DNA of 64,000 nt from an uncultured Gemmatimonadota bacterium (GTDB taxonomy: Bacteria > JAAXHH01). Every line of letters starts with the position of its first letter. Position 1 is the first letter of the stretch. The translations under genes were made by a program, and so were the position numbers. The DNA lies in NCBI GenBank assembly GCA_951812955.1, contig OX638340.1, positions 544,001-608,000 of the forward strand, given 5' to 3'. Shown piece after piece: positions 17,015 to 57,625 of this stretch. The notes under the pieces are model-generated. The model was not told the DNA's origin and searched no databases. It was given only the letters and a program-made list of their open reading frames with translations.

Positions 17015-17236
17015 TGAGTCGACCTTTCATTCTGATGATCATGGGTATTGGTTATATCCGACGTTATCGTATTCCTTACTTAGAGGCTTCAAAATCAACA
17101 ACATAGCCTAGATTGAGGCATTCGTCTTGGAACGGATATTTGAGGATAAGTTCATGGATTTATACACTGAATCGGTATGCATACAAATCGCATTTGAAAC
17201 ATGCAAAGCTATCCTACACTAGTCACGTCCGTTTCA

Positions 17237-18397
17237 TCACAGCCCAACCGTACATGCGTGTTCAAGCCCAACCACTTCCACGCGGTCGTGAATCCGGAAT
17301 CGCGATTCGCCGGGGAAAACGACGACTAGCCGGTCTAGTTTCAGGTCGGACAACGCCGTGTGCATGGAACGCGTCATCGAAGGCGCGCTGGATCGCTTGA
17401 ACTCGAACCCGGTTCTTCGACCGCCTTCCATGATCAGAAGATCGAGTTCCGACCCGCGATGGGTAGCCCAGAAATAACAGTCCTCCCAGGAAGCGCCCGC
17501 AATTCGGACCACCTCCTGCATGGCGAAACCCTCCCACGAAGCACCGGATTTTGGATGCCCCATGAGATCTGCCTCGTCCTTCACACCCAACAGCGCGTGT
17601 AACAGCCCGGAGTCCGAAAGATACACCTTGGAGGCTTTGACCTGACGTTTCTTAAGATTCTCGTACCATGGTTGCATCCTGCGCGCTACCAATGCGTCGA
17701 CGAGGGTGTCGAGGTATGAATTTACCGTTGGTGCGGTGACGCCAAGTGCGCGGCCGAGTTCGGCTCCATTCCAGTGATTCCCGTGGTAGTGGGCCAACAT
17801 GGTCCAGAATCGACGCATGGATGCGGCGGGAACAGAAATACCGAGCTGCGGCAGATCTCTTTCGAGGAAAGATCGAATGAACGCCGTCCGCCAGGTAAGG
17901 CTGTTCTCGTCGTTCTGGGCAAGGAACGAAGGAGGGAATCCGCCGCGCAACCAGAGTCGGTCCGTTTCAGCCGTACCCGTTTCGTTGATCCGTAGCGGCG
18001 GTAGTTCATAGTATGCGATCCTCCCGGCGAGCGATTCTGAAGACTGGCGAAGTAGTACGGGTCCCGCACTGCCCAGGACCAGAAAACGGGCCGGTGTACC
18101 TGGACGGTCCGAGAGCACACGAAGCAGGCGGAAAAGTCCTTCGTTTCGTTGGATCTCATCGATTACGACCAACCCGCGCAGCGGTTCCAACGCGAGCTTG
18201 GGATCAGACAGTCGCGTCTCGTCGGTCGGGTCTTCAAGATCGAAGAAGGTGACGGGACGCGCTTCGCCCTCTATCAGTTGGCGCGCGAGCGTGGTCTTTC
18301 CAACCTGCCGTGCCCCGATAAGACAGACCACGGGAAACTGGTTTAACAGTTCGCGAATTGCGGTGAGATGTTGGGTCCGTGGGATCATACGGGACAA
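17237..18397 (-). CDS. AAA+ ATPase with DUF4143 (COG1373-type ATP-binding protein)
   Basis: N-terminus ...LIGARQVGKTTLARQL (P-loop). C-terminal DUF4143-like region. Start is TTG at 18397 or ATG at 18388. Confidence 0.85.
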   Translation of the reverse strand: MSRMIPRTQHLTAIRELLNQFPVVCLIGARQVGKTTLARQLIEGEARPVTFFDLEDPTDETRLSDPKLALEPLRGLVVIDEIQRNEGLFRLLRVLSDRPGTPARFLVLGSAGPVLLRQSSESLAGRIAYYELPPLRINETGTAETDRLWLRGGFPPSFLAQNDENSLTWRTAFIRSFLERDLPQLGISVPAASMRRFWTMLAHYHGNHWNGAELGRALGVTAPTVNSYLDTLVDALVARRMQPWYENLKKRQVKASKVYLSDSGLLHALLGVKDEADLMGHPKSGASWEGFAMQEVVRIAGASWEDCYFWATHRGSELDLLIMEGGRRTGFEFKRSSAPSMTRSMHTALSDLKLDRLVVVFPGESRFRIHDRVEVVGLEHACTVGL

Positions 18398-22931: not shown

Positions 22932-24401
22932 TCAACCGTCCCCCATGGCCCGTCGAATGGGCCTCATCACGGGTTCGGTGACCTCTTCCGGCGGCGGGGA
23001 CGTGAAACGCGACACCACGATACCCACCACGGAAGTGGCCATGAAACTCCATGCAACCGGTATGAGCCCTGGATTCGGAAGCCATTCGTAAAACATGGCA
23101 ACGAGCACGGCGTTGCCCACGATGATGGCCGAAATGGCCGCCGTGGCCGTAAAGCGTCGCCAGTGTAGGCCCAGCAGCCAGATTGGGGTCAGCGTGACAA
23201 ATCCCGAGAAGGACAACTGTGCCAGGGCGAATATGGATGCCGGCCTTAGGATCACGATATAGTAGGCGATCCCCCCGAGTATGACGAGGAACAACCGGCC
23301 GAGCACCACCTGTCTGCGCTGGGACAGGCCGTGCCACACGTCGCGGGTGAGCATGGACGACAGGGTGAGCATCTGGGCGTCCAGGGTGGACATGACCGCC
23401 GCCAGGATGCCGGCCAGCGCGAGTCCCTGGATCAAGGGACCGAAGTGGCTGCGGATCACCATGGGGAAGACCAGGTCGGAATCCCGGCCGACGAAATCCG
23501 GAAACTCGATGCGTCCCCACACGCCGTAGAGCGTGGCCACAAGCATCAACCCGATCATGATAATGGGGTAGTACCGAATGGAGTTCTTCAGCGATTTCAC
23601 GTCTTTCGCGGCGAATACGCGCACCAGCAGGTGGGGAAAGGCGAGTACGACCAGTCCCATGGCCATGCCCCAAACGAACCAGTTGCCCGTCGTGAATGGC
23701 GGCGTGTCTTTCGTGGCCGTGAGCTCCGGAAACCGCTGGGCGACTTCCTTCATGACGCCTGAGATGCCTCCGAAATCGGCCGCGACAACGAAGATGGACA
23801 CGTACAGGAAAACGCCGAACACGAGGCCCTGGAACACGTTGGTCCACATGGTCGCCCGCATACCGCCCGTGGTAGTGTAAATCAGCGTGATGATCAGGAT
23901 GCCGGCCGCCGCGACCTCAAAGGAGATCGCCTGTTGGGTGAATACGTCGACGGCCAGTCCCACGCCGGCGACGCCGGTGGACAGGTAGGGCAGCATGTAG
24001 ATGAAGTACACCAGGAAGAGCAGGCGGCCGAGGTTGGGGCTGTCCAGCCTGCGGGCGAGCAGTTCCGCCGGCGTTACGGCGTTCAGTTTCCGCGAGGCGA
24101 TCCAGGCCGGATACCCGATGACGTAGTAGGCCACCGGTATGATCAGGGCCGCCATGGCCGCCGTATAGCCGAACACCCCGTAGCCGTGATGGTACGACAG
24201 GCCCGATATGCCCATGATCAGGAAGGGCGTGATGTTCGTGCCGAAAAGGGCCATGAACATCACCAGCGACCGGGCGAGGCGTCCCCCGAGGAAATAGTCT
24301 TCGGCCGTCGGCTTGGATCGGCGGAACGCGGCGGCTCCGATGGCCAGCACCACGGCGAAGTACACCACGACGACGACGAATATGGTCGCTTCAGGACCCA
24401 T
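22932..24401 (-). CDS. sodium:solute symporter (SSS family)
   Basis: 489 aa, about 13 TM segments. SSS-family signature region GGMRATMWTNVFQG. Confidence 0.9.
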   Translation of the reverse strand: MGPEATIFVVVVVYFAVVLAIGAAAFRRSKPTAEDYFLGGRLARSLVMFMALFGTNITPFLIMGISGLSYHHGYGVFGYTAAMAALIIPVAYYVIGYPAWIASRKLNAVTPAELLARRLDSPNLGRLLFLVYFIYMLPYLSTGVAGVGLAVDVFTQQAISFEVAAAGILIITLIYTTTGGMRATMWTNVFQGLVFGVFLYVSIFVVAADFGGISGVMKEVAQRFPELTATKDTPPFTTGNWFVWGMAMGLVVLAFPHLLVRVFAAKDVKSLKNSIRYYPIIMIGLMLVATLYGVWGRIEFPDFVGRDSDLVFPMVIRSHFGPLIQGLALAGILAAVMSTLDAQMLTLSSMLTRDVWHGLSQRRQVVLGRLFLVILGGIAYYIVILRPASIFALAQLSFSGFVTLTPIWLLGLHWRRFTATAAISAIIVGNAVLVAMFYEWLPNPGLIPVAWSFMATSVVGIVVSRFTSPPPEEVTEPVMRPIRRAMGDG

Positions 24402-24679: not shown

Positions 24680-26047
24680 TCAAGACCCTTTTGATGCTGT
24701 TGCGCCTCGCAAACCGGCCGCGTACCTGCGAGTTTCCGCCGCAACGATGGGCGAAAGGAAAAGCAGGGCCACCAGGTTCGGGAAGGCCATGAGGCCGTTC
24801 ATGATATCGGATACTCCCCAGACCAGTTCCAGCTCTGATACGGCGCCGATTCCTACGAAGAGGCAGAACAGCGTGCGGTAAGGCAGCGCGGAACGCTCAC
24901 CGAGCAGGTACACGACGGATTTCTCGCCGTAGTAGCTCCAGCCCAGGATGGTGGAGTAGGCGAACAGCACCAGGCCAATGGCTACCAGGTGGCCACCGAA
25001 TCCTCCCGGCAGTCCCGCAGTAAATGCAGCGGCGGTGAGCGGCGCTCCGGTGTCGCCGGATAGCCATACCCCCGTGCCGATTATGGTGAAACCTGTGATC
25101 GTGCACACCACAAGCGTATCGATGAAGGTCTGCGTCATGGACACCAGGGCTTGCGTGACCGGATCCTTCGTTTGCGCGGCGGCGGCGGCGATACCCGCGC
25201 TCCCCAGCCCGGATTCGTTGGAGAAGATGCCTCTCGCCACGCCGAACTGGACCGCCTGGCGGACCATGGCCCCGGCGAAGCCCCCGGCAGCCGCGGTGGG
25301 TGTGAAGGCGTGCATGACGATGAGTTCGAAGATGCCCGGGATCGCGGATGCGTTAATGAGGATGGCCGTCAGTCCGCCCAGGATGTATAGCACGATCATC
25401 GTGGGGACGATCAGGCTGGCCGCGCGTCCGATGCTCTTGATCCCGCCTATCAGGACCAGTCCCGTGCCGGCCATGAGCACGATACCCGTAACCCAGGGCG
25501 AGACCCCGAAGGTACTCTGGATTACGTCGGCCATGGAGTTCGACTGCGTCATATTCCCGATGCCGAAGGCCGCGAGCGCGGCAAACAGGGCGTAAGCGGC
25601 GCCGAGCCACTTCCATCCCAGGGCATTGGAAATGTAATACATGGGACCGCCCCTCATGAGTCTCTTCGAATCGGTCTCGCGGTACTTGACGGCCAGGACG
25701 GCCTCGGAGTACTTGGTGGCCATGCCCACCAGGCCCGTCATCCACATCCAGAAAAGCGCGCCCGGTCCGCCGGCCGCGATGGCCGTGGCCACACCCGCGA
25801 TGTTTCCCGTACCGACGGTCGCTGCCAATGCCGTCATCAGGGCCTGGAAATGGCTGATATCGCCCTCCGCGTCCGCCTCGCGGCGGCGTACGAAGGCCAG
25901 ATACAGTGCGTGGCACAGGGAGCGGAATTGCACACCCTTCAGCAGGACCGTAAGGTAGAGACCCGTACCGCCCAGCAGCACCAGCATGGGTAGTCCCCAA
26001 ACGAGTGCCTGAACGTTGCCGACGTAATCAAGAAACGTGTTTTCCAT
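24680..26047 (-). CDS. alanine or glycine:cation symporter (AGCS family)
   Basis: 455 aa. AGCS signature blocks [22 protein letters not shown] and GPGALFWMW. Confidence 0.9.
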
Positions 26048-26215
26048 ATCGTTTTCCGTGTGAGGGTGAAGAGGAGAATAACGAAGGCCAACCTAAGAGC
26101 CCACTCGAATCGCTGTCAAGCACTTTCATTTTGTTGCTTGATCTTTAAACGCCCCGTTTTTATAGTGAACCATCGCCGGTGACGGTTGGAAGAGACCAGG
26201 CCGGTTTTCCGTCTT

Positions 26216-26281
26216 TCATGGCAGTACCAGCTTCTATGGCAGAACCTTTGTCGCAATACCAGTTTTATGTCAGAACCTTCG
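26216..26281 (+). promoter_or_regulatory. three direct copies of ATG[G/T]CAG[A/T]ACC, with an embedded sigma-54-like -24/-12 element (TGGCAGAACCTTTGTC)
   Basis: Copies lie at about 26218, 26235 and 26266. TGGCAG-N5-TTGT lies about 65 bp before the ATG at 26320. It differs from the TGGCAC-N5-TTGC consensus at two positions. Confidence 0.3.
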
Positions 26282-26319
26282 TGGATGAACCAGCATTCAC
26301 CAACTGAGGATCATGCTAC

Positions 26320-27309
26320 ATGTCAACACTACAGATCGGCATTGCCGGCGCCGGCGGCATGGGCGGCCACCACGCCCGGATGATTTCCGCCCGGGAGGAC
26401 GCCCGGGTCGTGTCCCTGTTCGATACAGACCCCGTGGCGATGAACCGTTTGGAGAAGAACCTGGGAACGGCGGCGCAGGGCCTGAACCACTATGGGTCGC
26501 TCGAAGCAATGATCGATTCAGAGGAACTGGACGGCATCGTCATCGCCACCCCTCATACCCGGCATGCGGACCAGGTTCGCGCCAGCCTGGAAGCGGGTCT
26601 GCACGTCCTCGTGGAAAAGCCCATGGCGACGACTACGCGGGACGCCAGAGACTTCATCGCGTATTCAGAACGGGCGGGCAAGGTGCTTGCCGTCGCCTAT
26701 CAGCGCCATGGCGAGGGCAAGTTCATAAAGGCTCGGCAGATGATCGCGGAAGGAGCCATCGGCGACGTACGGCTCGTCCACGTCATCATCGCCCAGGACT
26801 GCCTGGGGATCTTCAGTCCCGGCGCGTCCTGGCGCGCGGACCCCGAGTTATCCGGCGGCGGCCATTTCATGGATACGGGCAGCCATATCAACGACATCCT
26901 GTTGTGGACGACCGGACTGGAACCGAAGTCGGTCCACGCCTTTATCAACCCGGAAGGCACTCTGGTCGACGTGAATACAGCCATTTCGGTGGAGTTCACC
27001 AACGGCGCCGTCGGCAATCTTTCCTACACGTCCCTGTCGCCCGAATGGCGGGAAGAGTTTACCTTCTACGGTACGGAAGGCGTGATGCGCTTCGGCGCGT
27101 CGGAGCCGCTGTTCGTCCACCGCAAGGGCGAGGATATACGGTTGCCTCAGACCCCCGGCCGAGGAAAGCCGCCGGCGGACAATTTCATCGAAGCCATACA
27201 GGGCGAGGCGGACGTACAGGCGCCGCCCATCTGCGGATTGCGCGTGGTACAGCTGACCGAGGCGGCCTACAAATCGGCCGCGAGCGGTAAGCCCGAGGCA
27301 GTCGGTTGA
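26320..27309 (+). CDS. Gfo/Idh/MocA-family NAD(P)-dependent oxidoreductase
   Basis: N-terminal Rossmann motif IGIAGAGGMGGHH. EKP catalytic motif (HVLVEKPMA). Confidence 0.85.
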   Translation: MSTLQIGIAGAGGMGGHHARMISAREDARVVSLFDTDPVAMNRLEKNLGTAAQGLNHYGSLEAMIDSEELDGIVIATPHTRHADQVRASLEAGLHVLVEKPMATTTRDARDFIAYSERAGKVLAVAYQRHGEGKFIKARQMIAEGAIGDVRLVHVIIAQDCLGIFSPGASWRADPELSGGGHFMDTGSHINDILLWTTGLEPKSVHAFINPEGTLVDVNTAISVEFTNGAVGNLSYTSLSPEWREEFTFYGTEGVMRFGASEPLFVHRKGEDIRLPQTPGRGKPPADNFIEAIQGEADVQAPPICGLRVVQLTEAAYKSAASGKPEAVG

Positions 27310-27372
27310 TCCGGACTATCTCGGTCCAGTTAGATCGAGCACGGTCATGTACAACATCCTTTGAGGAGTAAG

Positions 27373-28839
27373 ATGAACGAAAATGGTATGAACACCTGTC
27401 CCCTGTTTATCGATGGCAGCTGGACCGACGCGGGCGACGTAGCGACGGAACCGGTATTTAACCCATCGGACGGCAGCGTCATCGCGAGAACGCCCATGTG
27501 CGGCGAAACCGAGGTCGATTCGGCGGTCCGGGCAGCCCGTGCGGCCTTGCCCGATTGGTCCGCGACCCCGGTCGTTGACCGTGCGCGGATTCTCTTCCGT
27601 TACGTGCATCTGCTAGAAGAGAACTTCGAAGCGCTGTCCCGCCTGGTAACGCGTGAGCATGGCAAGACCCTGGTAGAAGCCCGGGGTTCGGTGCGCCGCG
27701 GTATCGAAGTCGTGGAATTCGCCTGCGGTGCGCCTACCCTGCTGATGGGCGATTCGCTCGAGCAGATCGCCAGCGGGATCGATTGCGACACCATACGCCA
27801 GCCCGTGGGGGTCTGCGCGGGGATCACCCCTTTCAACTTCCCCGCCATGGTGCCCATGTGGATGTATCCCATCGCCATCGTCTGTGGGAACACCTTCGTA
27901 CTCAAGCCTTCCGAAAAAGTACCCCTCACCGCCATACGGCTCGTGGAACTGCTCCATGAAGCCGGCCTGCCGTCCGGGGTGATGAACCTGGTCCACGGCG
28001 GCGTGGACGTGGTAAACGCCCTGTGCACGCACCCGGATATCGACGCCGTCTCCTTCGTCGGTTCTTCCCCCGTGGCGAGGCACGTCTACCAGACCGCAAC
28101 CGCCCATGGCAAGCGCGTGCAGTCGGCCGGAGGCGCCAAGAACTACATGATTATCCTGCCCGACGCGGACCCTGCCTTCACGGTGGATGCCCTGATCGGC
28201 TCGGTATACGGTTGCGCCGGGGAGCGATGCATGGCCGGCAGTGTGGCCGTGGCCGTGGAGGAAGCGGCGCAGCGCGTGCTGCCTCCGCTGCGCGAAGCGC
28301 TGGATGAAATGAAGGTAGGACCGACGGACCGGGAACCGGCGGCGGACATGGGGCCGGTCGTCACCCGCCAGCACCTCGACAAGGTGCATGGTTATATCGC
28401 TTCGGGCCTGGCGGACGGCGCCTCGCTTTACCGGGACGGCCGCGGTGTTGAAGTACCGCAAACACCGGAAGGCTTCTACCTGGGTCCCACGATATTCGAT
28501 GATGCCGCCACCAGCATGAAAATCGTCCGGGAGGAGATTTTCGGTCCGGTGCTTTCCGTGATTCGCACCGACAGCCTTGACAAGGGCATCGAAGCCTGCA
28601 ATCAGAGCGGATTCGGCAATGCCGCGGTCCTTTTCACGGGCGACGGGAAGGCTGCCAGGACGTTCAGAAACCGGGTCAGCGCCGGGATGGTGGGCATTAA
28701 CGTCGGCGTCCCGGCGCCCATGGCGTTCTTCCCCTTCACGGGCTGGAACGGCTCGTTCTACGGCGACCTGCACATGCAGGGCAAGGAAGGTTTCGCTTTC
28801 TATACCCGTCAGAAAGTCACCATGAGCCGGTGGGCGTGA
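27373..28839 (+). CDS. mmsA: CoA-acylating methylmalonate/malonate-semialdehyde dehydrogenase (MmsA/IolA type)
   Basis: Aldehyde-dehydrogenase catalytic Cys in ERCMAGS and Glu in VLKPSE. MmsA-specific N-terminus and C-terminus (FTGWNGSFYGDLHMQGKEG). ATG with GGAG 5 nt upstream. The track ORF begins at the TTG at 27361. Confidence 0.9.
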   Translation: MNENGMNTCPLFIDGSWTDAGDVATEPVFNPSDGSVIARTPMCGETEVDSAVRAARAALPDWSATPVVDRARILFRYVHLLEENFEALSRLVTREHGKTLVEARGSVRRGIEVVEFACGAPTLLMGDSLEQIASGIDCDTIRQPVGVCAGITPFNFPAMVPMWMYPIAIVCGNTFVLKPSEKVPLTAIRLVELLHEAGLPSGVMNLVHGGVDVVNALCTHPDIDAVSFVGSSPVARHVYQTATAHGKRVQSAGGAKNYMIILPDADPAFTVDALIGSVYGCAGERCMAGSVAVAVEEAAQRVLPPLREALDEMKVGPTDREPAADMGPVVTRQHLDKVHGYIASGLADGASLYRDGRGVEVPQTPEGFYLGPTIFDDAATSMKIVREEIFGPVLSVIRTDSLDKGIEACNQSGFGNAAVLFTGDGKAARTFRNRVSAGMVGINVGVPAPMAFFPFTGWNGSFYGDLHMQGKEGFAFYTRQKVTMSRWA

Positions 28840-28873
28840 GCGCGGCCTAAAGCATTAACGCGGCCATAACCAA

Positions 28874-29971
28874 ATGAGGGATGAAAGCATGTCCAAACCC
28901 GATGTCTACATTTTGAAAACCCAATTGGACGGCGAAGATGCGTTGAACGACGCCGCCTTCGCCACCCCGGCCCGAGAGATGCTGCGCGCGCTGGACATCG
29001 ATCCCGGAAACCGCGCCGTGATGATGAAGCCCAATGTCACGGCGGGAGCGCCGCGCAACAGTGGAATCGTTACGCATCCGGCCTTCGTGGGCGGTATGGT
29101 CGACTACTTTGTCGAGGAAGCGGGTGTGCCGCACGAACGTCTCTACGTCGGCGAAGCGACAAGCCGGCTGACTTCGAAGACGCAACGCGACCTGAGTTGG
29201 GCCCGGAGCGGCTACACGGAGATGGCGCGCGAGAAGCGCGTGCGGCTGCTCGAACTGGCGGACTATGGCAACGTGCGCGTGATGCCGGGCGGCACGGTAC
29301 AGCTCCACAACATCGGGATCTCCCGTTGGGCGGCATCGGAAAACGTGTTCTACATCAACGTTCCCAAACTGAAGACCCACAACCTGGGCGTGGTCACCCT
29401 GTGCGGCAAGAACCAGCAGGGCATCATGATACCGGTCACGGAACGGCACCTGTGCTCGGATGCGTGGCGCGCCACATTCGGACGGGACGACAAGAGAAAG
29501 CAGGGACGGGAATGGATGCGCGAGGAGGACCACGAGGCGTGGCAGCGGACCATTGCGCACATGCACTGGGACGTCTTCCTGGCGTGCCGGCCCGATTTCA
29601 ACCTGGTGGAGGGCATCGTGGGACGAGACGGCAACGCCTTCTACCAGGGCCGCAACTTTCCCACAGGTCTCGCTGTCGCCGGTGAATCCATGGCCGCGGT
29701 GGATCTGGTGGCGGCCCATCTCATGGACTTCGAGCCGCCGAACCTGGTCTATCTTCAGGTCGGGATCGAACGGGGACTTTGTCCGCCCTCGATCGGCGAC
29801 GTGAATGTACATCTCGTCCGGAACGGCGAGGTGGCCGGATTGACCGATGCGGATCGATTCAAGGCCGATCCTCCCTTCGAAGTATACCGCGATATCCCAG
29901 CTGACTACGCCAAAAAAGACCTGTTCGACGAGTACGATCCGAACGCCGAGGACTTTCAGATCACGGCCTGA
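28874..29971 (+). CDS. DUF362-domain protein
   Basis: Family-typical KPNVTAG ... THP ... INVPKLKTH blocks. A second ATG at 28889 has a better Shine-Dalgarno sequence. Confidence 0.65.
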   Translation: MRDESMSKPDVYILKTQLDGEDALNDAAFATPAREMLRALDIDPGNRAVMMKPNVTAGAPRNSGIVTHPAFVGGMVDYFVEEAGVPHERLYVGEATSRLTSKTQRDLSWARSGYTEMAREKRVRLLELADYGNVRVMPGGTVQLHNIGISRWAASENVFYINVPKLKTHNLGVVTLCGKNQQGIMIPVTERHLCSDAWRATFGRDDKRKQGREWMREEDHEAWQRTIAHMHWDVFLACRPDFNLVEGIVGRDGNAFYQGRNFPTGLAVAGESMAAVDLVAAHLMDFEPPNLVYLQVGIERGLCPPSIGDVNVHLVRNGEVAGLTDADRFKADPPFEVYRDIPADYAKKDLFDEYDPNAEDFQITA

Positions 29972-30040
29972 CGGAGAGCCGGATCACGGCCTGACGAAGA
30001 GCCGGTTCTCTCGGCGTGAGGAATACCCGGAGGGTCTCCC

Positions 30041-31225
30041 ATGACACAGGAAGTGGTGGATCCCCTCTACGCCGCTTTGATGTCACCCGGAACGCGTGAC
30101 TATACCCACGGGTTCCTGCCCCCAGAGGATCCGCTTCCCCGCCTGCCCGAGCTTTTCGAGGAATGGGAACAGACCGGCGACGTGTTGCCCAAGCTGGCCC
30201 TGACGCGGCATATCCGCCCCGCGATAGAGGATCTGCCTTCATTCGCGGTCGACCGGCTGGATACCCTCGCAGAGCATGAACGGGCCATGAGTCTGCTGTC
30301 CTTCTTGGCCAACATGTACGTTTTCGCCCCAGATCATCCGGTGGCCACGGCGATCCCCCGGAACCTGGCTCTGGCCTGGCACGGCGTGGCCTGCCGCCTC
30401 GGACGTCCTCCCATGCTGACCTACGCCTCCCAGGTCATGTACAATTGGCGAAGGTTCGACAAGCAAGGCCCCGTCGAAGTCGGCAATCTGCGCATGTTGC
30501 TTAATTTCCTCGGCGGCATGGACGAAGAATGGTTCGTCACCATACACGTGCACATCGAGGCCGTCGCGGGCCGCGCGCTCTCCTTGCTGATCCCCGGCCA
30601 GGAAGCGGTGTTGCGGGGCGAATCGGAAACGATCGCACATTGCCTGGATGCCGTGGCCGAAACGCTACGCGAAATGCGGTCGATCCTGGAGCGGATGACG
30701 GAACGGTGTGATCCGAATACGTACTATCACCGGGTCAGGCCGTACATGTTCGGCTGGAAGAACAACCCTGAATTGCCCGAAGGCATGGTGTATTCGGGCG
30801 TGGAAGCCTACGGCGGCATGCCTCAACAGTTCCGCGGCGAAACCGGGGCGCAGAGCGCGGTCATTTACGCGGTGGACGGGTTTCTCGGTATAGACCACGG
30901 GTACGACGAAATGCGGGCGTACCTGATGGAAATGCGCGACTACATGCCCGTTCAGGACCGCCATTTCATCGAAACGGTGGAAGGCGGACCGTCCGCCAGG
31001 GCGCACGTCCTGGACCGGAAGTCCGACCTGCCGGGGCTGCGGAAATCCTACAACGAAGCCGTGGAAGCCCTTTACGAATTCCGCCGGCTGCACATCGAGT
31101 ACGCTGCGATGTACGTGCTCAAGCCGGGACAAAAGGAATCCAAGGGCCACGTCGGCACCGGCGGCACGCCATTCACGGTATATTTAAAGAAGCACATCGA
31201 CGAAACCCTGGCCCACCGTATCTAG
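30041..31225 (+). CDS. indoleamine 2,3-dioxygenase (IDO)-like haem dioxygenase family protein
   Basis: FRGETGAQSAVIYAVDGFLGI aligns with the IDO GGSAGQSS..F..D..LGI block. FRRLHIEYAAMYV aligns with the proximal-His helix (SYHLQIVTKYI in human IDO1). GGAGGG Shine-Dalgarno sequence. Confidence 0.7.
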   Translation: MTQEVVDPLYAALMSPGTRDYTHGFLPPEDPLPRLPELFEEWEQTGDVLPKLALTRHIRPAIEDLPSFAVDRLDTLAEHERAMSLLSFLANMYVFAPDHPVATAIPRNLALAWHGVACRLGRPPMLTYASQVMYNWRRFDKQGPVEVGNLRMLLNFLGGMDEEWFVTIHVHIEAVAGRALSLLIPGQEAVLRGESETIAHCLDAVAETLREMRSILERMTERCDPNTYYHRVRPYMFGWKNNPELPEGMVYSGVEAYGGMPQQFRGETGAQSAVIYAVDGFLGIDHGYDEMRAYLMEMRDYMPVQDRHFIETVEGGPSARAHVLDRKSDLPGLRKSYNEAVEALYEFRRLHIEYAAMYVLKPGQKESKGHVGTGGTPFTVYLKKHIDETLAHRI

Positions 31226-31312
31226 CCGCACTGTGGTCAAAACAGTTGCCCTTTCGTTCTCTCCGTGTTAAATTGTAGTACCGGTAAAGGCCATATCCAC
31301 AAGGGCTTAGAG

Positions 31313-32569
31313 ATGGCGCGCAAGTTCGATATCCCCAATTTCTACAAAAGCGAGATTACCGCCCGGATCAAGCAGGGCCGGAGACTGGTCGATCCCAAGA
31401 AAAAGGACCTGTCGCCCTCCATTCTGGATTTCGACAGCGTCCGGTTTGTCTTCGCCAGGCATTTCGGTTTCTGCTACGGCGTGGAAAACGCAATCGAAAT
31501 CGTATACAAGACTTTGGAGGAACACCCGGACAAGCGGATTTTCCTGCTCAGCGAGATGATCCACAATCCGAATGTCAACACGGATCTGCAGTCCCGGGGC
31601 ATCCGGTTCATTCATACCACCCTGGGCGAACAGCTTATTCCCTGGGACGAATTGACCCCCGATGACCTGGTCGTCGTTCCCGCGTTCGGCACTACGGTGG
31701 AAATCAAGGAGATGCTGACTCGCCGGGGGATCGATTTCTGCACCTACGATACGACCTGTCCCTTCGTCGAGAAGGTCTGGACCCGGGGCGGACAGATCGG
31801 CCAACAGGGATTTACGGTCGTCATTCACGGGAAACCCCGGCACGAAGAGACGCGCGCGACCTTCTCCCACAGTGTCCAGCAGGCCCCGACCGTCGTGGTG
31901 CGTAACCGGGAGGAGACCCGTCTCCTTGCCGATATCATCACGGGGAGATCAACCCGGGACCGGTTTTTCGAAGTATTCGGCGAAAACTGCTCGAAGGGAT
32001 TCGATCCTGATATTCATCTGAACCGGGTCGGCGTAATCAACCAGACTACCATGCTCGCCAGCGAGACGCATGAAATCGCGCGGTTAATCAGAGAAGCGCT
32101 GGAGGTACGGCATGGCACCGAACTTATATCCGATCATTTCGCCGATACCTCGGATACCCTGTGCTACGCCAGCAACGAAAATCAGAATGCCACATACGCC
32201 ATGATTGACAAGGGGGCTGACGTCGCCCTTGTCGTCGGGGGCTACAACTCGTCCAACACTTCTCATCTCGTAGAGCTTTGCGGGGAAACGATCAGCACCT
32301 TCTTCATCAACAGCAGCAAAGACATCCTCTCCGACAGGCAGATCCGCCACTTCGACCTGGAATCCAAGTCGATCCTCGCCACCATTGACTGGCTCCCGGC
32401 CGCCCGGCCCGTGGACATCATCCTGACCTGCGGCGCTTCGTGTCCCGATATCATGCTGGACAACGTGCTGCTGCGCATTCTTTCATTCTTTCCCAATGCA
32501 CCGCCGGTAGCGGAAGTCCTTGCCGATTACGAAAACACCGTACGGAAGCCGGTGGTTGCAGAATCGTGA
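31313..32569 (+). CDS. ispH: 4-hydroxy-3-methylbut-2-enyl diphosphate reductase, long form with insertions
   Basis: All three cluster Cys present (GFCYGV, DTTCPFV, LCYASNENQ). Also HGKPRHEETRAT, INQTT, VVGGYNSSNTSHL and TCGASCPD blocks. About 100 aa longer than E. coli IspH. Confidence 0.88.
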   Translation: MARKFDIPNFYKSEITARIKQGRRLVDPKKKDLSPSILDFDSVRFVFARHFGFCYGVENAIEIVYKTLEEHPDKRIFLLSEMIHNPNVNTDLQSRGIRFIHTTLGEQLIPWDELTPDDLVVVPAFGTTVEIKEMLTRRGIDFCTYDTTCPFVEKVWTRGGQIGQQGFTVVIHGKPRHEETRATFSHSVQQAPTVVVRNREETRLLADIITGRSTRDRFFEVFGENCSKGFDPDIHLNRVGVINQTTMLASETHEIARLIREALEVRHGTELISDHFADTSDTLCYASNENQNATYAMIDKGADVALVVGGYNSSNTSHLVELCGETISTFFINSSKDILSDRQIRHFDLESKSILATIDWLPAARPVDIILTCGASCPDIMLDNVLLRILSFFPNAPPVAEVLADYENTVRKPVVAES

Positions 32570-32675
32570 ACTGGCCGCCGTCCCTTGAACGGCGGCGTGG
32601 CGGAAGATCGCCTTGTGCCCGGTCGCCCGTACATTCGAGACACACTCGAGACACATTTCACTACAGGGGAGTTTC

Positions 32676-33542
32676 ATGCAGATCGGGGTGAGTTCATACA
32701 GTTACAGCAGATTGATCCGAAGCGGTGCGATGACGGAATTCGACGCGGTCCGCCAGACGGCGGAACTCGGATTCGACGTGATCGAATTCTCCTCACTGAA
32801 CCCGCCCGGGAACCAGTCATTCGAGGAGTATGCCCCTGAGATACGCGCGGCCTGCGACGAGGCGGGTCTGCCCATCGCCAACTACACGGTCGGAGCGGAT
32901 TTCATCAACGGAAGCGAAGGAAACCGGGACGTCGAGGTTGAACGGGTGAAGGACGAGGTGCGTATCGCCCACTTGCTCGGTGCACCCGGCATGCGCCACG
33001 ACGCCACCCGGGGGTTTCCTGGAAGCCGTCCCGGCGAACGATCATTCGACGACGCCCTTGCCATCCTCGTGCCGGCGATCCGGGCGGTCACGGAGTTTGC
33101 CGAGGACCTGGGTGTCCGTACCATGGTGGAGAATCACGGGTTGTTCTGCCAGGACAGCGATCGCGTGGAGAAACTGGTCAATGCGGTAAATCACGAGAAC
33201 TTCGGTGTGCTCATCGACATGGGCAATTTCCTGTGCGTGGATGAACAGCCTGACATCGCCGTGGGACGTTTGATTCCGTACGCTTTTCACGTCCACGCCA
33301 AGGACTTCCACACCAAGCCGGGCACGGCGCCCGATCCCGGCGAGGGATGGTTCCGAACGCGGGGGGGCAACTATCTGAAGGGTGCTGTCGTCGGCCACGG
33401 CGAAGTACCCCTGACTTCGTGTCTGCAGGTGCTATCGCGGCACGGGTACGATGGCGTGCTTTCCATCGAATTCGAAGGCATGGAATATCCCGTCGACGGC
33501 GTTCGCATCGGGCTCGAAAACCTCAAGCGCTATCTGGGCTGA
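32676..33542 (+). CDS. sugar phosphate isomerase/epimerase (xylose-isomerase-like TIM barrel)
   Basis: AP-endonuclease-2/XylA-like TIM barrel with metal ligands in VENHG, DMGNF and HAKD. Start at MQIGVS with an AGGGGAG Shine-Dalgarno sequence. The longest ORF begins at 32613. Confidence 0.8.
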   Translation: MQIGVSSYSYSRLIRSGAMTEFDAVRQTAELGFDVIEFSSLNPPGNQSFEEYAPEIRAACDEAGLPIANYTVGADFINGSEGNRDVEVERVKDEVRIAHLLGAPGMRHDATRGFPGSRPGERSFDDALAILVPAIRAVTEFAEDLGVRTMVENHGLFCQDSDRVEKLVNAVNHENFGVLIDMGNFLCVDEQPDIAVGRLIPYAFHVHAKDFHTKPGTAPDPGEGWFRTRGGNYLKGAVVGHGEVPLTSCLQVLSRHGYDGVLSIEFEGMEYPVDGVRIGLENLKRYLG

Positions 33543-33572: not shown

Positions 33573-34538
33573 TTATCCGAGCCGGACGACCTCGCCCGTC
33601 TCCATGGATTCATTCGCTGCAAGCGTGACCGCCAGACTGTCGACCACGTCTCCGTAAGCCGACCGGATCAGAGACGGATTCTCTTCTTCGACGGCCTGCA
33701 GGAAGAGTTCGTTCTCGAGCTGGTAGGGGTTGTTCCGGCCCGGGTACCTTACCGTTTCATCTTCCCTTACGACCACGAGTTCTCCCCGCACGATCTCGAC
33801 CGTCAATCCGCGGGCGATGACCTGGAGTCCGGTGCCATACCCCTGTTCGGCGACACAGGACGAGAGAATCGTGGCCACGGCGCCGCTCGCGAAGGTAAGC
33901 GATACGGTGCTGGCATCCTCCACGTCGTAATTTTGCAGGTCTTCCATAAGGCCCTTCGTACCCGCGGCGTATACGCTGACCACGTCGCCCATGAGATACC
34001 GCGCGCAGTCGTACACGTGCGTGGTCTGTTCCACGATCTGTCCACCTGACTTGGATTTTACGCGCCACCAGGGTGAGCCGGGCGTGTTGCCGATCCAGTA
34101 TCCATAGGCCAGGGCCGGGCGAACGCCGGACAACAGCTCCCGTGCCTTCTGCGTTACGTCGAGGTACCGCCAGTTGTATCCGACGCAGGAGAGCACCCCG
34201 CTTTCCTCGACCTTCGCCGCGATAACCCGCGCGGTATCCATGTCCAGCGCCTGCGGTTTCTCGACGAACAGGTGGAGGTTGCGTTCCAGCACGGCCAACT
34301 CGGGCTCGCCATGGGCGAAGGGCGGGAGGCATACGTACACGGCATCCAGCTCTTCCCTGTCCAGCATCTCACGGTAGTCGCCGTATGCGCGACCGCCGCA
34401 CCGGTCAGCCGCCGCCTGCGCGCGATCGATAGAGATATCCGCGTACGCCACGAGTTCGGCCCGATCGATATCCGGCAAGAGCCCCAGATGCATGCCCGCT
34501 ATGCCGCCGGTTCCTATAAAACCAATACGAACGCCCAT
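33573..34538 (-). CDS. Gfo/Idh/MocA-family oxidoreductase
   Basis: Rossmann motif IGFIGTGGIAGMH. EKP motif (LFVEKPQA). Start at MGVRIGF with a GGAGG Shine-Dalgarno sequence. The longest ORF extends to 34637. Confidence 0.85.
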   Translation of the reverse strand: MGVRIGFIGTGGIAGMHLGLLPDIDRAELVAYADISIDRAQAAADRCGGRAYGDYREMLDREELDAVYVCLPPFAHGEPELAVLERNLHLFVEKPQALDMDTARVIAAKVEESGVLSCVGYNWRYLDVTQKARELLSGVRPALAYGYWIGNTPGSPWWRVKSKSGGQIVEQTTHVYDCARYLMGDVVSVYAAGTKGLMEDLQNYDVEDASTVSLTFASGAVATILSSCVAEQGYGTGLQVIARGLTVEIVRGELVVVREDETVRYPGRNNPYQLENELFLQAVEEENPSLIRSAYGDVVDSLAVTLAANESMETGEVVRLG

Positions 34539-34614
34539 GTGCAGTCCTCCGCTGTTTCTGGTACGTGAAACCCTGGATGACCGGTCATACCCACCGCCGT
34601 TCATCCTTAAAAAG

Positions 34615-36369
34615 TCACTGTTCCCTCTTTGCGACAATCATCGTCGTGTCGTCGTCCTGGCTGTCGCCACCCACGAAGGCGCGCCACACTTCGATCACGT
34701 GGTCCCGGATCTCCTCGACCGTGCATGAATGGCAGTCCTTGATCGCCTGCTCCAGCCGGTCGATTCCGAAGATCTCGTCCCTGTCGTTGGATTTCTCGAT
34801 GAGACCATCGGAATACAGGACCACGACATCGCCTTCGTCCAGGTACACGCGTCCGTCCTCGAAACTCGCGTAGTCGAAGGAACCCACGATCAGGCCCCCG
34901 GTGTAAAGGTTGACCGTTTCGCCGGATTTCCTGCACAGCAAGGGCGGCGGATGGCCGGCATTGCAGTAGACGAAGGTGTTTTCCTGCAGGTTCGCGATGC
35001 CGTAGAACAGGGTGGCGAACCGGTCCGCGGACGTGACCTCGTACAGGACCTCGTTGACGTGCCCGATTACGTAACTCGGCAGGTATACGTAGTAATTGGC
35101 AAATTCGTGGAATGACGTGTAGAGCGAAGCCATGGTCAGCGCGGCGGGAATGCCCTTGCCGACCACGTCGCCCACGGCTAGGCCCAGTTGCTTGTCCGAA
35201 AAGGGAATGAAATCGTAGAAGTCGCCCCCGACCTCCCTGCTGGGCTCGCTGAATACGGCCAGGGAAAGGCCGGGCACTTCAGGCACGGCGCGCGGCAAAA
35301 GGGCGCGCTGGATCTCACCGGCGACCTCCAGCTCCCTGTCCAGCAACCGGCTTCGGCGCGCGTCCTCGAACAGGCGCGCGTTCTGTATAGCGATACTTGC
35401 CTGGGAAGCGAAGGCTTCGAGCAGGAACTGGGCTTCCTCGTTGTAAGCGTTTGCCTCGTCGTTTTCGATGTTGAAGACCCCGATCACCTGATCTCCTGAA
35501 AGTATAGGCACGGCCATCTCCGATTTGGTGCCCGGCCGGTGTTGCACGTACCGGTCGTCCCGGGACACGTCCGACACGATGATCGCCCGGCCGGTCTCGG
35601 CCGCTGATCCGCTGATGCCTTCGCCCATTTTCAGGTTGATCGCGTCCAGATCCGGCGAATATCCCCTGATGGTCCGTTCGACCACCGCGTTCCGGTCTTT
35701 GTCGAGAAGAAAGATGGCCGCTGCGTCGTAGGGCACCACGGTCTGCAGCGCATCGATGATCAGGTTCAGCACCTCGCTCAGATCCAGCGAACTGCTAATC
35801 CGCTTTCCCACCTCGTACAGGGCGGTTCGGTGAATCATCTGCTGACGGGCCAGCTTGAAATGCAAAAGGCGCGTGACCGAGTAGCCCGCGTGGCGCGCCA
35901 GAGAAATGGTGACTTCAAGGCGTTCGGAATCAAATTCGGTCTCGCCGGAATCCATGACCGCCAGCAGTACGCAGTGAAACCGGACGTCGATCTGGTGATG
36001 AAACAACACGGCATGGCCGGAGAGGGCATTCCGGTCAGTCATGGCATGCAGGGGCCAGTCCAATTGCTGCACGTCCTCGATCAACCGGGTACTCGGCTGC
36101 GGTCGCAGCCAGGACAGCAATAATTCGACTTCCCGCTCCTCAATGGGTTGGAAAAACCCGCATCCTGCAGTTTCGAAGACGATCCGATTCGAGTCACAGT
36201 CCACCATGAAGAATCGGCAGACTTCCGCGCCGGACAGCTCCAGCGTGATTTCTTCGATGGCGGCGGACAGGTCGGCTTCGTCCGTTGCGGCCGTCATCCG
36301 GGTCAGGCCCTCGACCACGCGGTGCCACAGGATGTCCGATCGCGCTTCTACGATATTTGGTTCCAGCAT
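34615..36369 (-). CDS. GAF-GAF-PP2C serine phosphatase (SpoIIE/RsbU-like)
   Basis: Two GAF-like regions followed by a PP2C domain with metal-binding Asp residues (GGDFYDF, DGLIE, GDSQDDDTTMIV). Confidence 0.85.
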   Translation of the reverse strand: MLEPNIVEARSDILWHRVVEGLTRMTAATDEADLSAAIEEITLELSGAEVCRFFMVDCDSNRIVFETAGCGFFQPIEEREVELLLSWLRPQPSTRLIEDVQQLDWPLHAMTDRNALSGHAVLFHHQIDVRFHCVLLAVMDSGETEFDSERLEVTISLARHAGYSVTRLLHFKLARQQMIHRTALYEVGKRISSSLDLSEVLNLIIDALQTVVPYDAAAIFLLDKDRNAVVERTIRGYSPDLDAINLKMGEGISGSAAETGRAIIVSDVSRDDRYVQHRPGTKSEMAVPILSGDQVIGVFNIENDEANAYNEEAQFLLEAFASQASIAIQNARLFEDARRSRLLDRELEVAGEIQRALLPRAVPEVPGLSLAVFSEPSREVGGDFYDFIPFSDKQLGLAVGDVVGKGIPAALTMASLYTSFHEFANYYVYLPSYVIGHVNEVLYEVTSADRFATLFYGIANLQENTFVYCNAGHPPPLLCRKSGETVNLYTGGLIVGSFDYASFEDGRVYLDEGDVVVLYSDGLIEKSNDRDEIFGIDRLEQAIKDCHSCTVEEIRDHVIEVWRAFVGGDSQDDDTTMIVAKREQ

Positions 36370-45482: not shown

Positions 45483-45529
45483 GTATACTCCAGGATTCGA
45501 TTGCCCACTTCGGAAGTGGTACATCCCAT

Positions 45530-57621: not shown

Positions 57622-57625
57622 GGCG

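Follow-up and report, generated by a model that had tools for sequence, protein, structure and literature searches.

The six-gene array at positions 26,320 to 33,542 of the window (the whole 64,000-nt stretch of DNA that was analysed) is probably, at roughly 70%, a composite of three differently aged layers rather than a single pathway. The array is found in a single lineage of uncultured bacteria from marine and sponge sources, and the only part retained across all orthologous lineages where it is visible is the leading trio, encoding a Gfo/Idh/MocA oxidoreductase (GFO1), a (methyl)malonate-semialdehyde dehydrogenase (MMSDH) and a DUF362 protein.

Organization of the array

All six of the array open reading frames are on the plus strand, and their Pfam matches are, in order, Gfo/Idh/MocA, Aldedh, DUF362, IDO, LYTB and AP_endonuc_2. 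The same-strand array of these families with short gaps described in the sequence-only reading is thus borne out, as is a second Gfo/Idh/MocA reading frame (33573-34637, minus strand; GFO2) that converges on the array across a 30 bp spacer. Gene calls in L092, a 99%-identical genome, together with L008 for the IspH and TIM-barrel genes, shift four starts downstream (ALDH to 27373, DUF362 to 28889, IspH to 31313 and the TIM barrel to 32676), giving gaps of 63, 49, 69, 87 and 106 bp; GFO2 is 321 aa in the L092 gene call. The features are as follows.

22932..24401, minus strand: SSF sodium:solute symporter gene (PF00474, 159 bits)
24680..26047, minus strand: AGCS (alanine/glycine:cation symporter family) gene (TIGR00835, 509 bits against a cutoff of 273)
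26138..26166, plus strand: sigma-70-like promoter, TTGATC-17-TATAGT, in the AGCS-GFO1 spacer (consensus scan)
26320..27309, plus strand: GFO1, Gfo/Idh/MocA NAD(P)-dependent oxidoreductase (PF01408, PF22725, PF02894)
27373..28839 (ORF from 27361), plus strand: MMSDH, CoA-acylating (methyl)malonate-semialdehyde dehydrogenase of the MmsA/IolA type (TIGR01722)
28889..29971 (ORF from 28874), plus strand: DUF362 protein with a predicted LarA-like fold, the pivot of the trio
30041..31225, plus strand: bacterial indoleamine 2,3-dioxygenase family haem protein, IDO (PF01231, 322.6 bits, full-length match)
31246..31274, plus strand: candidate internal promoter, TTGCCC-17-TAAATT, in the IDO-IspH spacer, conserved across sponge-clade loci
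31313..32569 (ORF from 31265), plus strand: IspH (HMBPP reductase), long cyanobacterial/plant-type form (NF009911, TIGR00216)
32676..33542 (ORF from 32613), plus strand: xylose-isomerase-like TIM-barrel protein (PF01261, 121 bits)
33573..34538 (ORF to 34637), minus strand: GFO2, second Gfo/Idh/MocA oxidoreductase (PF01408, PF22725)

Six genes in one direction are unremarkable (about 3% under random orientation, and ordinary for bacterial directons), and terminator and promoter scans of the array revealed no enrichment, with no terminator-like site in any of its spacers. Upstream, the SSF gene is kept at the same position in the sponge clade and L086 (orthologues 79-99% identical), and the AGCS gene, divergent from GFO1, lies upstream of the trio in the sponge clade, L086/L094, L097 and L098; GFO2 is kept only in the sponge clade and L086. 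Within the AGCS-GFO1 spacer a block, CTTGATCTT...TATAGTG, is kept together with a TGTCAAG upstream of it in the sponge clade, L086 and L098, with the rest of the spacer scrambled, and the predicted promoter at 26138..26166 is the probable driver of the GFO1-led unit. The candidate at 31246..31274 agrees with the consensus at 8 of 12 positions, under the scan threshold, and is a possible internal promoter.

Synteny and the conserved trio

We compared about 170 related loci. The full six-gene (and even ten-gene) order occurs only in L001-L007, L016, L092 and L093, in which IDO is 83-99% identical; these ten loci represent one close clade, in which the flanking symporters, SpoIIE/GAF, pseudouridine synthase, LspA and DksA genes are collinear too. 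The exact gene order is thus found beyond the source genome, but in its six-gene form it is limited to this clade. Loci L086, L087 and L094 share the ten-gene neighbourhood (proteins 63-83% identical) but lack IDO, such that DUF362 is followed directly by IspH; the gap of 33 bp in L086 suggests that IspH could be co-transcribed with the unit. The order in L008, L096 and L097 is GFO1-(WG-repeat remnant)-ALDH-DUF362-IDO-ADH, and in L098/L100 it is WG-repeat-ALDH-DUF362-IDO, with IspH not found within 7 kb.

The trio holds while both flanks are exchanged, with AGCS or PhyH upstream, and IDO, IspH, DASS or a 318-aa protein downstream. GFO1, its leading gene, has orthologues (71-80% identical) upstream of ALDH-DUF362 in L084, L088, L086 and L008, and MMSDH orthologues are present in all orthologue lineages at 76-83% identity. 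The MMSDH assignment is secure by profile (628 bits on TIGR01722, cutoff 448.5); among solved structures its nearest relatives are likewise MMSDHs (E = 8e-156), with which its GERCMA active-site motif (Arg-Cys) lines up. Loci L084/L085/L099 and L088/L089 (orthologues 67-80% identical) have the order PhyH-GFO1-WG repeat-ALDH-DUF362-DASS transporter with overlaps or gaps of 4 bp, both of which are seen in L084. L083 has ALDH-DUF362 and then different downstream genes, L082 has the same DUF362 protein as L083 without the upstream ALDH, and in L081 a DUF362 gene (55% identity) stands alone after Lon.

The DUF362 orthologue group comprises 23 clusters and every orthologous locus is from one uncultured lineage, so the retention of the trio could partly be phylogenetic inertia. 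At the 71 loci of DUF362 paralogues (L101-L171) no ALDH, IDO or IspH orthologue is nearby, the sole ALDH-family match being a weak one (25%) in L108, and clustering the neighbours of these loci plus L090 yielded no recurrent partner. In several lineages the trio unit is interrupted by the gene of a secreted WG-repeat protein without evident metabolic function. Gfo/Idh/MocA genes are numerous in these genomes, with two in the window and further copies in L088.

The IDO-family gene

The closest solved relatives of the window IDO are human IDO2 (E = 1e-56) and IDO1 (6e-49). It shares with known IDOs the proximal His (H351), the tryptophan-carboxylate-binding Arg (R233), the aromatic pocket (Y128, W164/F165) and the GTGGT loop, as aligned with human IDO. 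At the distal position human IDO1 has Ser167, whereas each of the 42 bacterial sequences examined, the window IDO (H169) among them, carries a His, which resembles tryptophan 2,3-dioxygenase. As the haem ligand and all alignable tryptophan-binding residues are kept, the most likely substrate for oxygenation by IDO is tryptophan or a related indole. According to PMC4217691, which summarises Yuasa, Ushigoe & Ball 2011, several of the bacterial IDOs characterised so far turn over tryptophan very slowly. No gene for kynurenine formamidase or kynureninase is present in the window or neighbourhood.

Most bacterial IDOs are encoded by stand-alone genes, whereas this one is embedded behind DUF362. It remains 20-70 bp after DUF362 in three sublineages (the sponge clade, L008/L096/L097 and L098/L100) with different downstream genes in each, and this retention through downstream rearrangements raises a possible functional tie between IDO and the trio. 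IDO is missing from the otherwise identical ten-gene neighbourhood of L086/L094, as well as from the outgroups, and because one sublineage has lost it, IDO is dispensable for the trio unit. In neighbour-joining trees (midpoint-rooted, without support values) the cluster-linked IDOs are monophyletic, their sister group being IDOs of Gemmatimonadota, Latescibacterota and Binatia MAGs in other contexts, and the IDO and ALDH+DUF362 trees have identical topology. IDO and its neighbours have the same GC3 (0.77), indicating that IDO is not a recent foreign insertion. At a further 71 IDO loci, neither DUF362 nor IspH nor the TIM barrel turned up inside 10 kb, a result that held with the threshold at E = 1e-3.

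IspH and the TIM barrel

The IspH protein scores 466 bits on NF009911 (cutoff 440) and 195.8 on TIGR00216 (cutoff 187.85), covers positions 25-400 of 405 in the NF009911/PRK13371 model of long-form cyanobacterial and plant IspH without material difference, and aligns with E. coli IspH at all three cluster cysteines and at the motifs HN, HxE, NSSN and GAS(C)P; by these matches we regard it as a canonical housekeeping-type enzyme and not an unusual paralogue. Plant IspH is known to be extended at the N-terminus compared with the E. coli enzyme (PMC4393896). With the revised start, 16 residues of the 'long' N-terminus are an ORF-calling artefact arising from an upstream GTG.

The closest solved relative of the TIM-barrel protein is Art22 (E = 3e-16). 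Its gene accompanies IspH rather than the trio, adjoining IspH in L086 and lying ~1 kb after it in L008, where the two are 7 kb away from DUF362-IDO; both are absent from the trio locus in L084, L088 and L098.

A LarA-like fold for the DUF362 protein

The DUF362 protein models confidently as the fold of the nickel-pincer racemase LarA, and this structure prediction is the single new item here. DUF362 and the LarA N-terminal domain DUF2088 are both in Pfam clan CL0471 (PMC11770544). However, sequence identity with LarA is just 10-12%, no sequence or profile match to any solved LarA was obtained, and the protein is 360 aa, with LarA longer at 400-450. His and Lys residues at three positions (H169, K179, H192) are invariant in the family. 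No LarB/C/E cofactor genes are among the ~40 window proteins scanned, and a literature search found no described activity for any DUF362 protein.

Comparison with known catabolic systems

Like the iol operon of Bacillus subtilis, the array has a Gfo/Idh/MocA dehydrogenase, an MmsA/IolA-type CoA-acylating dehydrogenase and a xylose-isomerase-like TIM barrel. However, on the IolG equivalog model GFO1 and GFO2 reach only 111 and 127 bits where 355 is required, the IolE model gives the TIM barrel 32 bits (cutoff 290), and no iolB, iolC or iolD was found within 10 kb on either side or among the ~40 window proteins scanned; moreover, the TIM barrel is part of the iol operon but here lies outside the conserved unit. 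We therefore reject an inositol pathway, in agreement with the earlier view that the definitive iol genes are lacking. MmsA/DddC-type clusters (valine, beta-alanine, 3-hydroxypropionate/DMSP-acrylate) likewise have a bona fide MMSDH, here in a marine bacterium beside solute symporters, but their usual partners do not adjoin it: a 3-hydroxyisobutyrate-dehydrogenase-like gene lies upstream at a distance of 25 kb, and a class-III aminotransferase gene downstream at 15 kb. To our knowledge, Gfo/Idh/MocA and DUF362 proteins belong to none of the described MmsA/DddC-type routes.

Alternative explanations

It is very improbable that all six genes, with or without GFO2, constitute a single undescribed pathway of oxidative catabolism or biosynthesis in which the IDO-like and IspH-like proteins act unusually on a sugar- or cyclitol-derived intermediate. 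The common strand, gaps of no more than 106 bp, spacers free of terminator-like sites, identical order in ten related genomes or contigs, and the proximity of IspH to DUF362 in L086 would all fit, but unrelated flanks in those ten loci are equally collinear, and the pathway is largely refuted by the presence/absence pattern: L086/L094 lack IDO, L008 has IspH and the TIM barrel at a distance, L084, L088 and L098 have neither of these two, and the partners do not recur near other IDO loci (0/71). An IspH above its canonical equivalog cutoff with every catalytic residue intact also argues against it. Between the mosaic and the undescribed module that the sequence-only reading left as options, the mosaic thus holds for the six-gene set, and the module survives in reduced form as the trio, with IDO joined in one clade.

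A four-gene tryptophan or indole-derivative module of this clade, (GFO1-)MMSDH-DUF362-IDO, is unlikely. Here IDO would open the indole ring, the LarA-like enzyme, dehydrogenase and MMSDH would handle the side-chain products, and AGCS would transport alanine or a similar amino acid, consistent with the constant position of IDO behind DUF362, the congruent trees, the intact haem-ligand and tryptophan-binding residues, and an AGCS gene kept upstream in the same clade. However, L086/L094 lost IDO and retained everything else, the outgroup trio has a DASS transporter in its place, kynurenine formamidase and kynureninase genes were not found in the window or neighbourhood, IDO loci of other phyla have no such partners, and the slow tryptophan turnover summarised in PMC4217691 for several bacterial IDOs also counts against it. 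We know of no route from tryptophan cleavage products to (methyl)malonate semialdehyde, which further weakens this explanation. At the other extreme, there may be no functional linkage at all, every adjacency, including the trio, being inherited order in a narrow lineage and MMSDH serving general valine, beta-alanine or propionate metabolism, with the remaining genes unrelated to it. The origin of every informative locus in one lineage, MMSDH conservation as expected of a general housekeeping catabolic enzyme, DUF362 without ALDH in L081 and L082, the abundance of Gfo/Idh/MocA genes and the interrupting WG-repeat protein favour this, but it is improbable given that the trio endures while flanks on both sides change, that genes in L084 overlap or are 4 bp apart, and that the promoter block is kept where the remaining spacer diverged.

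A probable composite of three layers

In the preferred reading of a layered composite, the first layer would be the old operon-like trio, read from a conserved sigma-70-type promoter in a spacer common to the divergent amino-acid/solute symporter pair. The second layer is IDO, presumably placed behind DUF362 a single time, in the common ancestor of a marine clade, then inherited vertically and probably co-transcribed with the trio since its arrival. As the third layer, housekeeping IspH and the TIM barrel would have come to adjoin the unit nowhere but in the sponge-associated sublineage and in its sister lineage; in the latter a block of ~7 kb, with genes for ADH, two ABC exporters, one membrane protein and PhyH, still intervenes, pointing to a deletion of this block.

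The predicted LarA fold points to DUF362 as a hydroxy-acid isomerase that partners the dehydrogenase and MMSDH. The trio would most likely serve to degrade a small hydroxy or sugar acid taken up from outside, which the DUF362 protein may isomerise or epimerise and GFO1 may oxidise at a hydroxyl group; the (methyl)malonate semialdehyde formed in this way would be turned into acetyl- or propionyl-CoA by MMSDH.

Organization of the gene row

Six plus-strand open reading frames lie between coordinates 26320 and 33542, and in order their products match the Pfam families Gfo/Idh/MocA, Aldedh, DUF362, IDO (322.6 bits), LYTB and AP_endonuc_2, exactly as the sequence-only reading had named them; the second Gfo/Idh/MocA gene that it had converging on the array is also present. 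Start sites were corrected from the gene calls of a 99%-identical genome (L092), and for the IspH and TIM barrel genes also from those of L008, a more distant relative.

22932-24401 (-), SSF symporter gene
24680-26047 (-), AGCS symporter gene, divergent from GFO1
26320-27309 (+), GFO1, Gfo/Idh/MocA family
27373-28839 (+), ALDH, the MMSDH gene; start moved downstream to 27373
28889-29971 (+), DUF362; start moved downstream to 28889
30041-31225 (+), IDO
31313-32569 (+), IspH; start moved downstream to 31313
32676-33542 (+), TIM barrel; start moved downstream to 32676
33573-34637 (-), GFO2, Gfo/Idh/MocA family, converging on the array

After correction the gaps along the row are 63, 49, 69, 87 and 106 bp, short as had been claimed, with a range of 49-106 bp replacing the earlier 23-100 bp. 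The row has features expected of a single transcription unit, lying on one strand with gaps of this size and with spacers free of terminator-like sites; six co-directional genes with short gaps are ordinary in a bacterial genome. Its immediate surroundings are transporter genes on one side and housekeeping genes (pseudouridine synthase, LspA, DksA, DivIVA) on the other.

Two other segments of the window were noted in passing. An AT-rich islet at 15608-18397 (GC 0.47 vs ~0.60) adjoins the glutaminyl-tRNA synthetase gene. Its products are a KAP-family P-loop NTPase and an AAA_14/DUF4143 ATPase, and it has the look of a small inserted mobile or defence element. At 56704-60028 on the minus strand, a circularly permuted ATP-grasp gene is in a row with genes for an Alpha-E domain protein and for a protein of transglutaminase type; the three are already known as a conserved association with no assigned function.

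Gene order at related loci

The nearest genome records are MAGs labelled Gemmatimonadetes or Candidatus Latescibacterota, several of which appear, from isolate names such as APA_bin_41, SB0665_bin_8 and Plut_88884, to come from sponge or coral holobionts; several complete chromosomes are also among the nearest records. The window's IDO protein itself had no exact match on record, and homologues took its place. Scanning one genome per species with an alignment of IDO homologues gave 80 loci with 10 kb flanks, against which ten window proteins were run by tblastn. The whole ten-gene neighbourhood (two symporters, the six array genes, GFO2 and a SpoIIE/GAF phosphatase) is present in only 8 of the 80, with IDOs 84-94% identical to that of the window, and L092 and L093 joined this set later; gene order is thus conserved beyond the window genome. 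At the other 71 IDO loci outside the cluster (IDO at most 65% identical, many phyla), DUF362, IspH and a related TIM barrel were found at none within 10 kb, even at E = 1e-3. A second survey was anchored on DUF362, using exact-protein look-up and a metagenome scan to recover orthologue neighbourhoods.

Arrangements at loci related to the array (identities are to the window)
L001-L007, L016, L092, L093 (sponge clade): full six-gene order
L008 (IDO 69%): GFO1, ALDH, DUF362 and IDO together; IspH and TIM barrel 7 kb further on
L096, L097: as L008
L098, L100: AGCS, GFO1 fragment, WG repeat, ALDH, DUF362, IDO (65%); IspH absent within 7 kb
L086, L087, L094 (Tara Oceans contigs, 0.6-1.6 Mb): the ten-gene neighbourhood at 63-83% protein identity, without IDO
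L084, L085, L099 and L088, L089: PhyH, GFO1, secreted WG-repeat protein, ALDH, DUF362, DASS transporter
L083: ALDH-DUF362, then unrelated genes
L082: same DUF362 protein as L083, without ALDH
L081: DUF362 (55%) alone

In the Tara Oceans contigs DUF362 is followed after 33 bp by IspH. In L084/L085/L099 and L088/L089 the genes are joined by 4 bp overlaps or gaps and the orthologues are 67-80% identical to the window's; the DUF362 protein of the first three is labelled Zixibacteria and the last two are unlabelled. The 7 kb block separating IDO from IspH in L008 carries a zinc alcohol dehydrogenase, two ABC exporters, a membrane protein and a PhyH-family gene, and a search of the rest of the window turned up no homologue of this block, of the L084 PhyH or of the DASS transporter. 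The six-gene order is therefore not conserved across divergent genomes: the exact order is absent outside the sponge clade, the core of GFO1, ALDH and DUF362 alone is kept, and IDO, IspH and the TIM barrel come and go. GFO1, MMSDH and DUF362 (the trio) form the only unit for which there is evidence of selection for linkage.

Several relatives have a gene for a secreted WG-repeat protein (PF14903, nine repeats) between GFO1 and ALDH (L084 5269-6402; L088 5344-6498; L098 5348-6487; L008 2280-2600). In L008/L097 decay has left a remnant of 106 residues with two repeats, and in the window nothing of the gene is left between GFO1 and ALDH, which are 63 bp apart; the protein in this position is thus not a missing enzyme. 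L082 and L083 share an identical DUF362 protein and downstream genes and differ upstream (TonB_C and a sigma-54 activator vs ALDH), reflecting either a strain-level rearrangement or a chimeric contig.

Inositol-type genes and the semialdehyde dehydrogenase

The array had been suggested to hold inositol-type parts, and of these the MmsA/IolA-type dehydrogenase stands. With 628 bits vs a cutoff of 448.5, the ALDH clears TIGR01722, the model for CoA-acylating methylmalonate-semialdehyde dehydrogenase; solved MMSDHs are close relatives (E = 8e-156), and the Arg-Cys motif of the active site is present. An enzyme of this type is shared with iol operons, whereas the IolG-type dehydrogenase, IolE, iolB, iolC and iolD are missing from the array. 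GFO1 and GFO2 score 111 and 126.8 bits against the IolG equivalog TIGR04380 (cutoff 355), the TIM barrel scores 32 bits against the IolE model TIGR04379 (cutoff 290), and iolB, iolC and iolD families are absent within 10 kb on either side in L092 and from the other window proteins scanned. The suggested IolG-like and IolE-like identities thus fall away, and an inositol-like pathway is ruled out. Neither GFO1 nor the TIM barrel has a close characterized relative. MMSDH is usually accompanied, in the breakdown of valine and beta-alanine, by 3-hydroxyisobutyrate dehydrogenase and a class-III aminotransferase; the window has a 3-hydroxyisobutyrate-dehydrogenase-like gene (1360-2250) 25 kb upstream of the MMSDH gene and a 527-residue class-III aminotransferase (44190-45773) 15 kb downstream, neither adjoining it.

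IspH

The sequence-only reading listed IspH among proteins of potentially unusual chemistry, which is not borne out. Alignment with E. coli IspH places the three [4Fe-4S] cysteines (GFCYGV, TCPFV and DTLCYA vs GFCAGV, TCPLV and DDICYA), the catalytic His, Glu, Ser and Asn motifs are kept (IHN, HEE, NSSN, GASCP), and the protein passes both the long cyanobacterial/plant-type equivalog NF009911 (466.1 vs a cutoff of 440) and TIGR00216 (195.8 vs 187.85). Because these residues align and the equivalog score passes, the protein is assigned as a canonical HMBPP reductase, and the candidacy of IspH as an exotic enzyme was dropped. Its description as long-form holds, and part of the 'extended' N-terminus is an ORF-calling artefact; plant IspH proteins are known to carry an extended N-terminus (PMC4393896). 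No other MEP genes were found among the ~40 window proteins scanned.

The DUF362 protein

Sequence and profile searches with the DUF362 protein against all PDB chains found no relative, and solved LarA was unmatched by either up to E = 10, leaving fold comparison as the sole informative route. A confident AlphaFold2 model built from 37 sequences (pLDDT 90.5, pTM 0.92) predicts a LarA-type fold, in agreement with the common Pfam clan of DUF362 and the LarA domain DUF2088, a kinship at clan level only (PMC11770544). The protein matches PF04015 only and not the LarA N-terminal domain model DUF2088. Family-wide, H169, K179 and H192 are invariant, with spacings of 10 and 13 residues. This spacing recalls that of His174, Lys184 and His200 in LarA, whose cofactor site has a Lys tethering the nickel-pincer cofactor along with Ni-binding and catalytic His residues; the three DUF362 residues may correspond to these. 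No larB, larC or larE was found among the ~40 window proteins scanned, and a literature search for DUF362 gave only its use as a LarA outgroup.

DUF362 homologues divide sharply: 23 clusters make up the orthologues (55-92% identity), and the numerous paralogues reach 43% at most. ALDH, IDO and IspH orthologues are near none of 71 paralogue loci (L101-L171), where the sole ALDH-family match, at L108, is weak (25%). Neighbour clustering of 72 loci (the same 71 plus L090) gave partners that are all of low frequency: a SelA-like aminotransferase, an amidohydrolase, an enolase-superfamily protein, Gfo/Idh/MocA and SDR. The two largest neighbour 'families' in this clustering were antisense ORF artefacts and were discarded.

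The IDO protein

The IDO is a full-length match to PF01231 (322.6 bits, profile positions 10-410 of 412), and its best solved relatives are human IDO2 (E = 1e-56) and IDO1 (E = 6e-49). Its proximal haem ligand is the invariant H351, the counterpart in the alignment of His346 in human IDO1. Y128, W164/F165, R233 (the carboxylate-binding Arg position) and the GTGGT loop G372-T376 are invariant in alignments of 17 and of 42 sequences, and the tryptophan-binding Y126, F163/F164, R231 and T379 loop of human IDO1 thus have counterparts; the HMMER alignment stops at residue 370, so that the loop was matched by eye. The position of human IDO1 Ser167 is His in 42/42 bacterial IDOs aligned, including the window's (H169, codon 30545-30547), a TDO-like distal His; the best-scoring human IDO1 PDB entry, 6cxu, also has His there in the alignment. 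Characterized bacterial IDOs range in activity from efficient to nearly nil (PMC4217691), so activity of the window protein is not to be assumed. Kynurenine formamidase and kynureninase were not found within 10 kb on either side in L092 or among the ~40 window proteins scanned, and a literature search for IDO in sponge symbionts gave host IDO only.

A recent foreign origin of the gene was considered and rejected, as GC, GC3 (0.77, equal to its neighbours) and codon-position composition carry no foreign signature. Neighbour clustering at the 71 loci outside the clade found no conserved partner of bacterial IDO; the commonest neighbours are ABC ATPases (13) and generic ALDHs (11), the latter mostly in Acidobacteriota- and Actinomycetota-labelled MAGs. 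IDO adjoins an MMSDH-like gene at one of these 71 loci alone, L060 (10001-12660) from a freshwater MAG; the two genes are directly convergent, and the MMSDH-like one is 47% identical to that of the window. The record is labelled Bifidobacterium breve, apparently a mislabel, and its IDO groups in identity with Actinomycetota-labelled MAGs.

Signals in the spacers

The only promoter-like match upstream of the array in a consensus scan is TTGATC-17-TATAGT at 26138-26166. Together with TGTCAAG upstream of it, it falls in a stretch (~26100-26180) shared by the sponge clade, L086 and L098, although protein identity among these sublineages is only ~70-80%. Elsewhere the spacer cannot be aligned, which speaks for the match being a real promoter of the GFO1-led unit. 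A weaker match in the IDO-IspH spacer (TTGCCC-17-TAAATT, 31246-31274) is kept in the sponge clade only. By number, consensus scans for promoters and terminators over the array gave nothing beyond chance, with 3 terminator-like sites vs 7.4 expected and none in spacers, and folding of the six spacers gave z-scores of -0.97 to +1.03 against shuffles, arguing that a structured element is absent.

An 8 bp perfect GC hairpin (GCCGCCGT...ACGGCGGC) lies at 32573-32595, a few bases after the IspH stop codon, and a 9 bp hairpin follows the DUF362 stop at 29974-30010; both lack a T-tract and neither is more stable than shuffled controls. Just upstream of GFO1, at 26213-26293, are three direct copies of a ~16 nt unit (CTTtcATGGCAGnACC) spaced by 18 and 31 nt. 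They are present only in the window and its closest relative, L016, and therefore are not a conserved element or a candidate operator.

History of the cluster

Neighbour-joining trees of ALDH plus DUF362 and of DUF362 alone have one topology: ((sponge clade, L086), (L008 group, L098)), (L084, L088), L083, L081. In the IDO tree all cluster-linked IDOs form one clade with the same internal topology, and its sister group is made up of IDOs that have unrelated neighbourhoods in Binatia, Gemmatimonadota and Latescibacterota MAGs. Most simply this reads as a history in three steps, which we infer since the trees are distance-based and without support values. IDO would have been placed behind DUF362 once, in the ancestor of the four sublineages, and then inherited vertically and lost in L086; IspH and the TIM barrel would already have been in the wider neighbourhood beforehand; and their adjacency would have arisen in the ancestor of the sponge clade and L086 by removal of the ~7 kb block still present in L008.

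Interpretation

We regard the six-gene array as a composite and not one pathway, with a probability of about 0.7. The earlier reading had offered either a mosaic or an undescribed module: the mosaic holds for the six genes, and a module survives only as the three-gene core. IspH and the TIM barrel adjoin the unit through rearrangement, and IDO is a clade-specific passenger or accessory of it. A single pathway of all six genes would sit well with their shared strand and short gaps and is largely refuted by the variable order, leaving it hardly any probability. Nor do we think that pure phylogenetic inertia accounts for everything; against it stands the evidence of selection for linkage within the trio, and it is very improbable. 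A functional tie between IDO and the trio, which their stable adjacency in three sublineages might suggest, is unlikely; with L086 managing without IDO, the data do not call for one.

Within this composite the trio most likely serves to break down a small hydroxy or sugar acid that the cell imports. The LarA-fold DUF362 protein would isomerize the substrate, the Gfo/Idh/MocA enzyme would oxidize it, and MMSDH would carry out CoA-dependent oxidative decarboxylation of (methyl)malonate semialdehyde. Family and fold assignments underlie this scheme; the order of steps and the substrate are what we infer from them, and the specific chemistry is proposed with low confidence. A bolder joint reading, to which we give only a slim chance, combines a new cofactor-dependent (possibly nickel-pincer) branch of hydroxy-acid isomerases in DUF362, an undescribed trio route and a co-transcribed IDO with possible effects on the host. 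If true, DUF362, Gfo/Idh/MocA and MMSDH would turn a hydroxy or sugar acid from the sea into acetyl- or propionyl-CoA, and in the sponge- and coral-associated sublineage IDO would contribute chemistry of the tryptophan/kynurenine type, to which the host might be exposed.

All of the genes are new members of known families. A tempting false lead is removed, since IspH is ordinary and the six genes do not make up a pathway of inositol-like or other exotic kind, and the remainder is a modest, lineage-restricted, undescribed gene cluster of uncultured marine and sponge-associated bacteria. The trio gives one DUF362 branch its first genomic context and a fold-based hypothesis, that of a LarA-like isomerase. 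A bacterial IDO inherited vertically inside the trio unit is documented in lineages that include animal symbionts, and this stable operonic context offers an experimental handle on the function of bacterial IDO.
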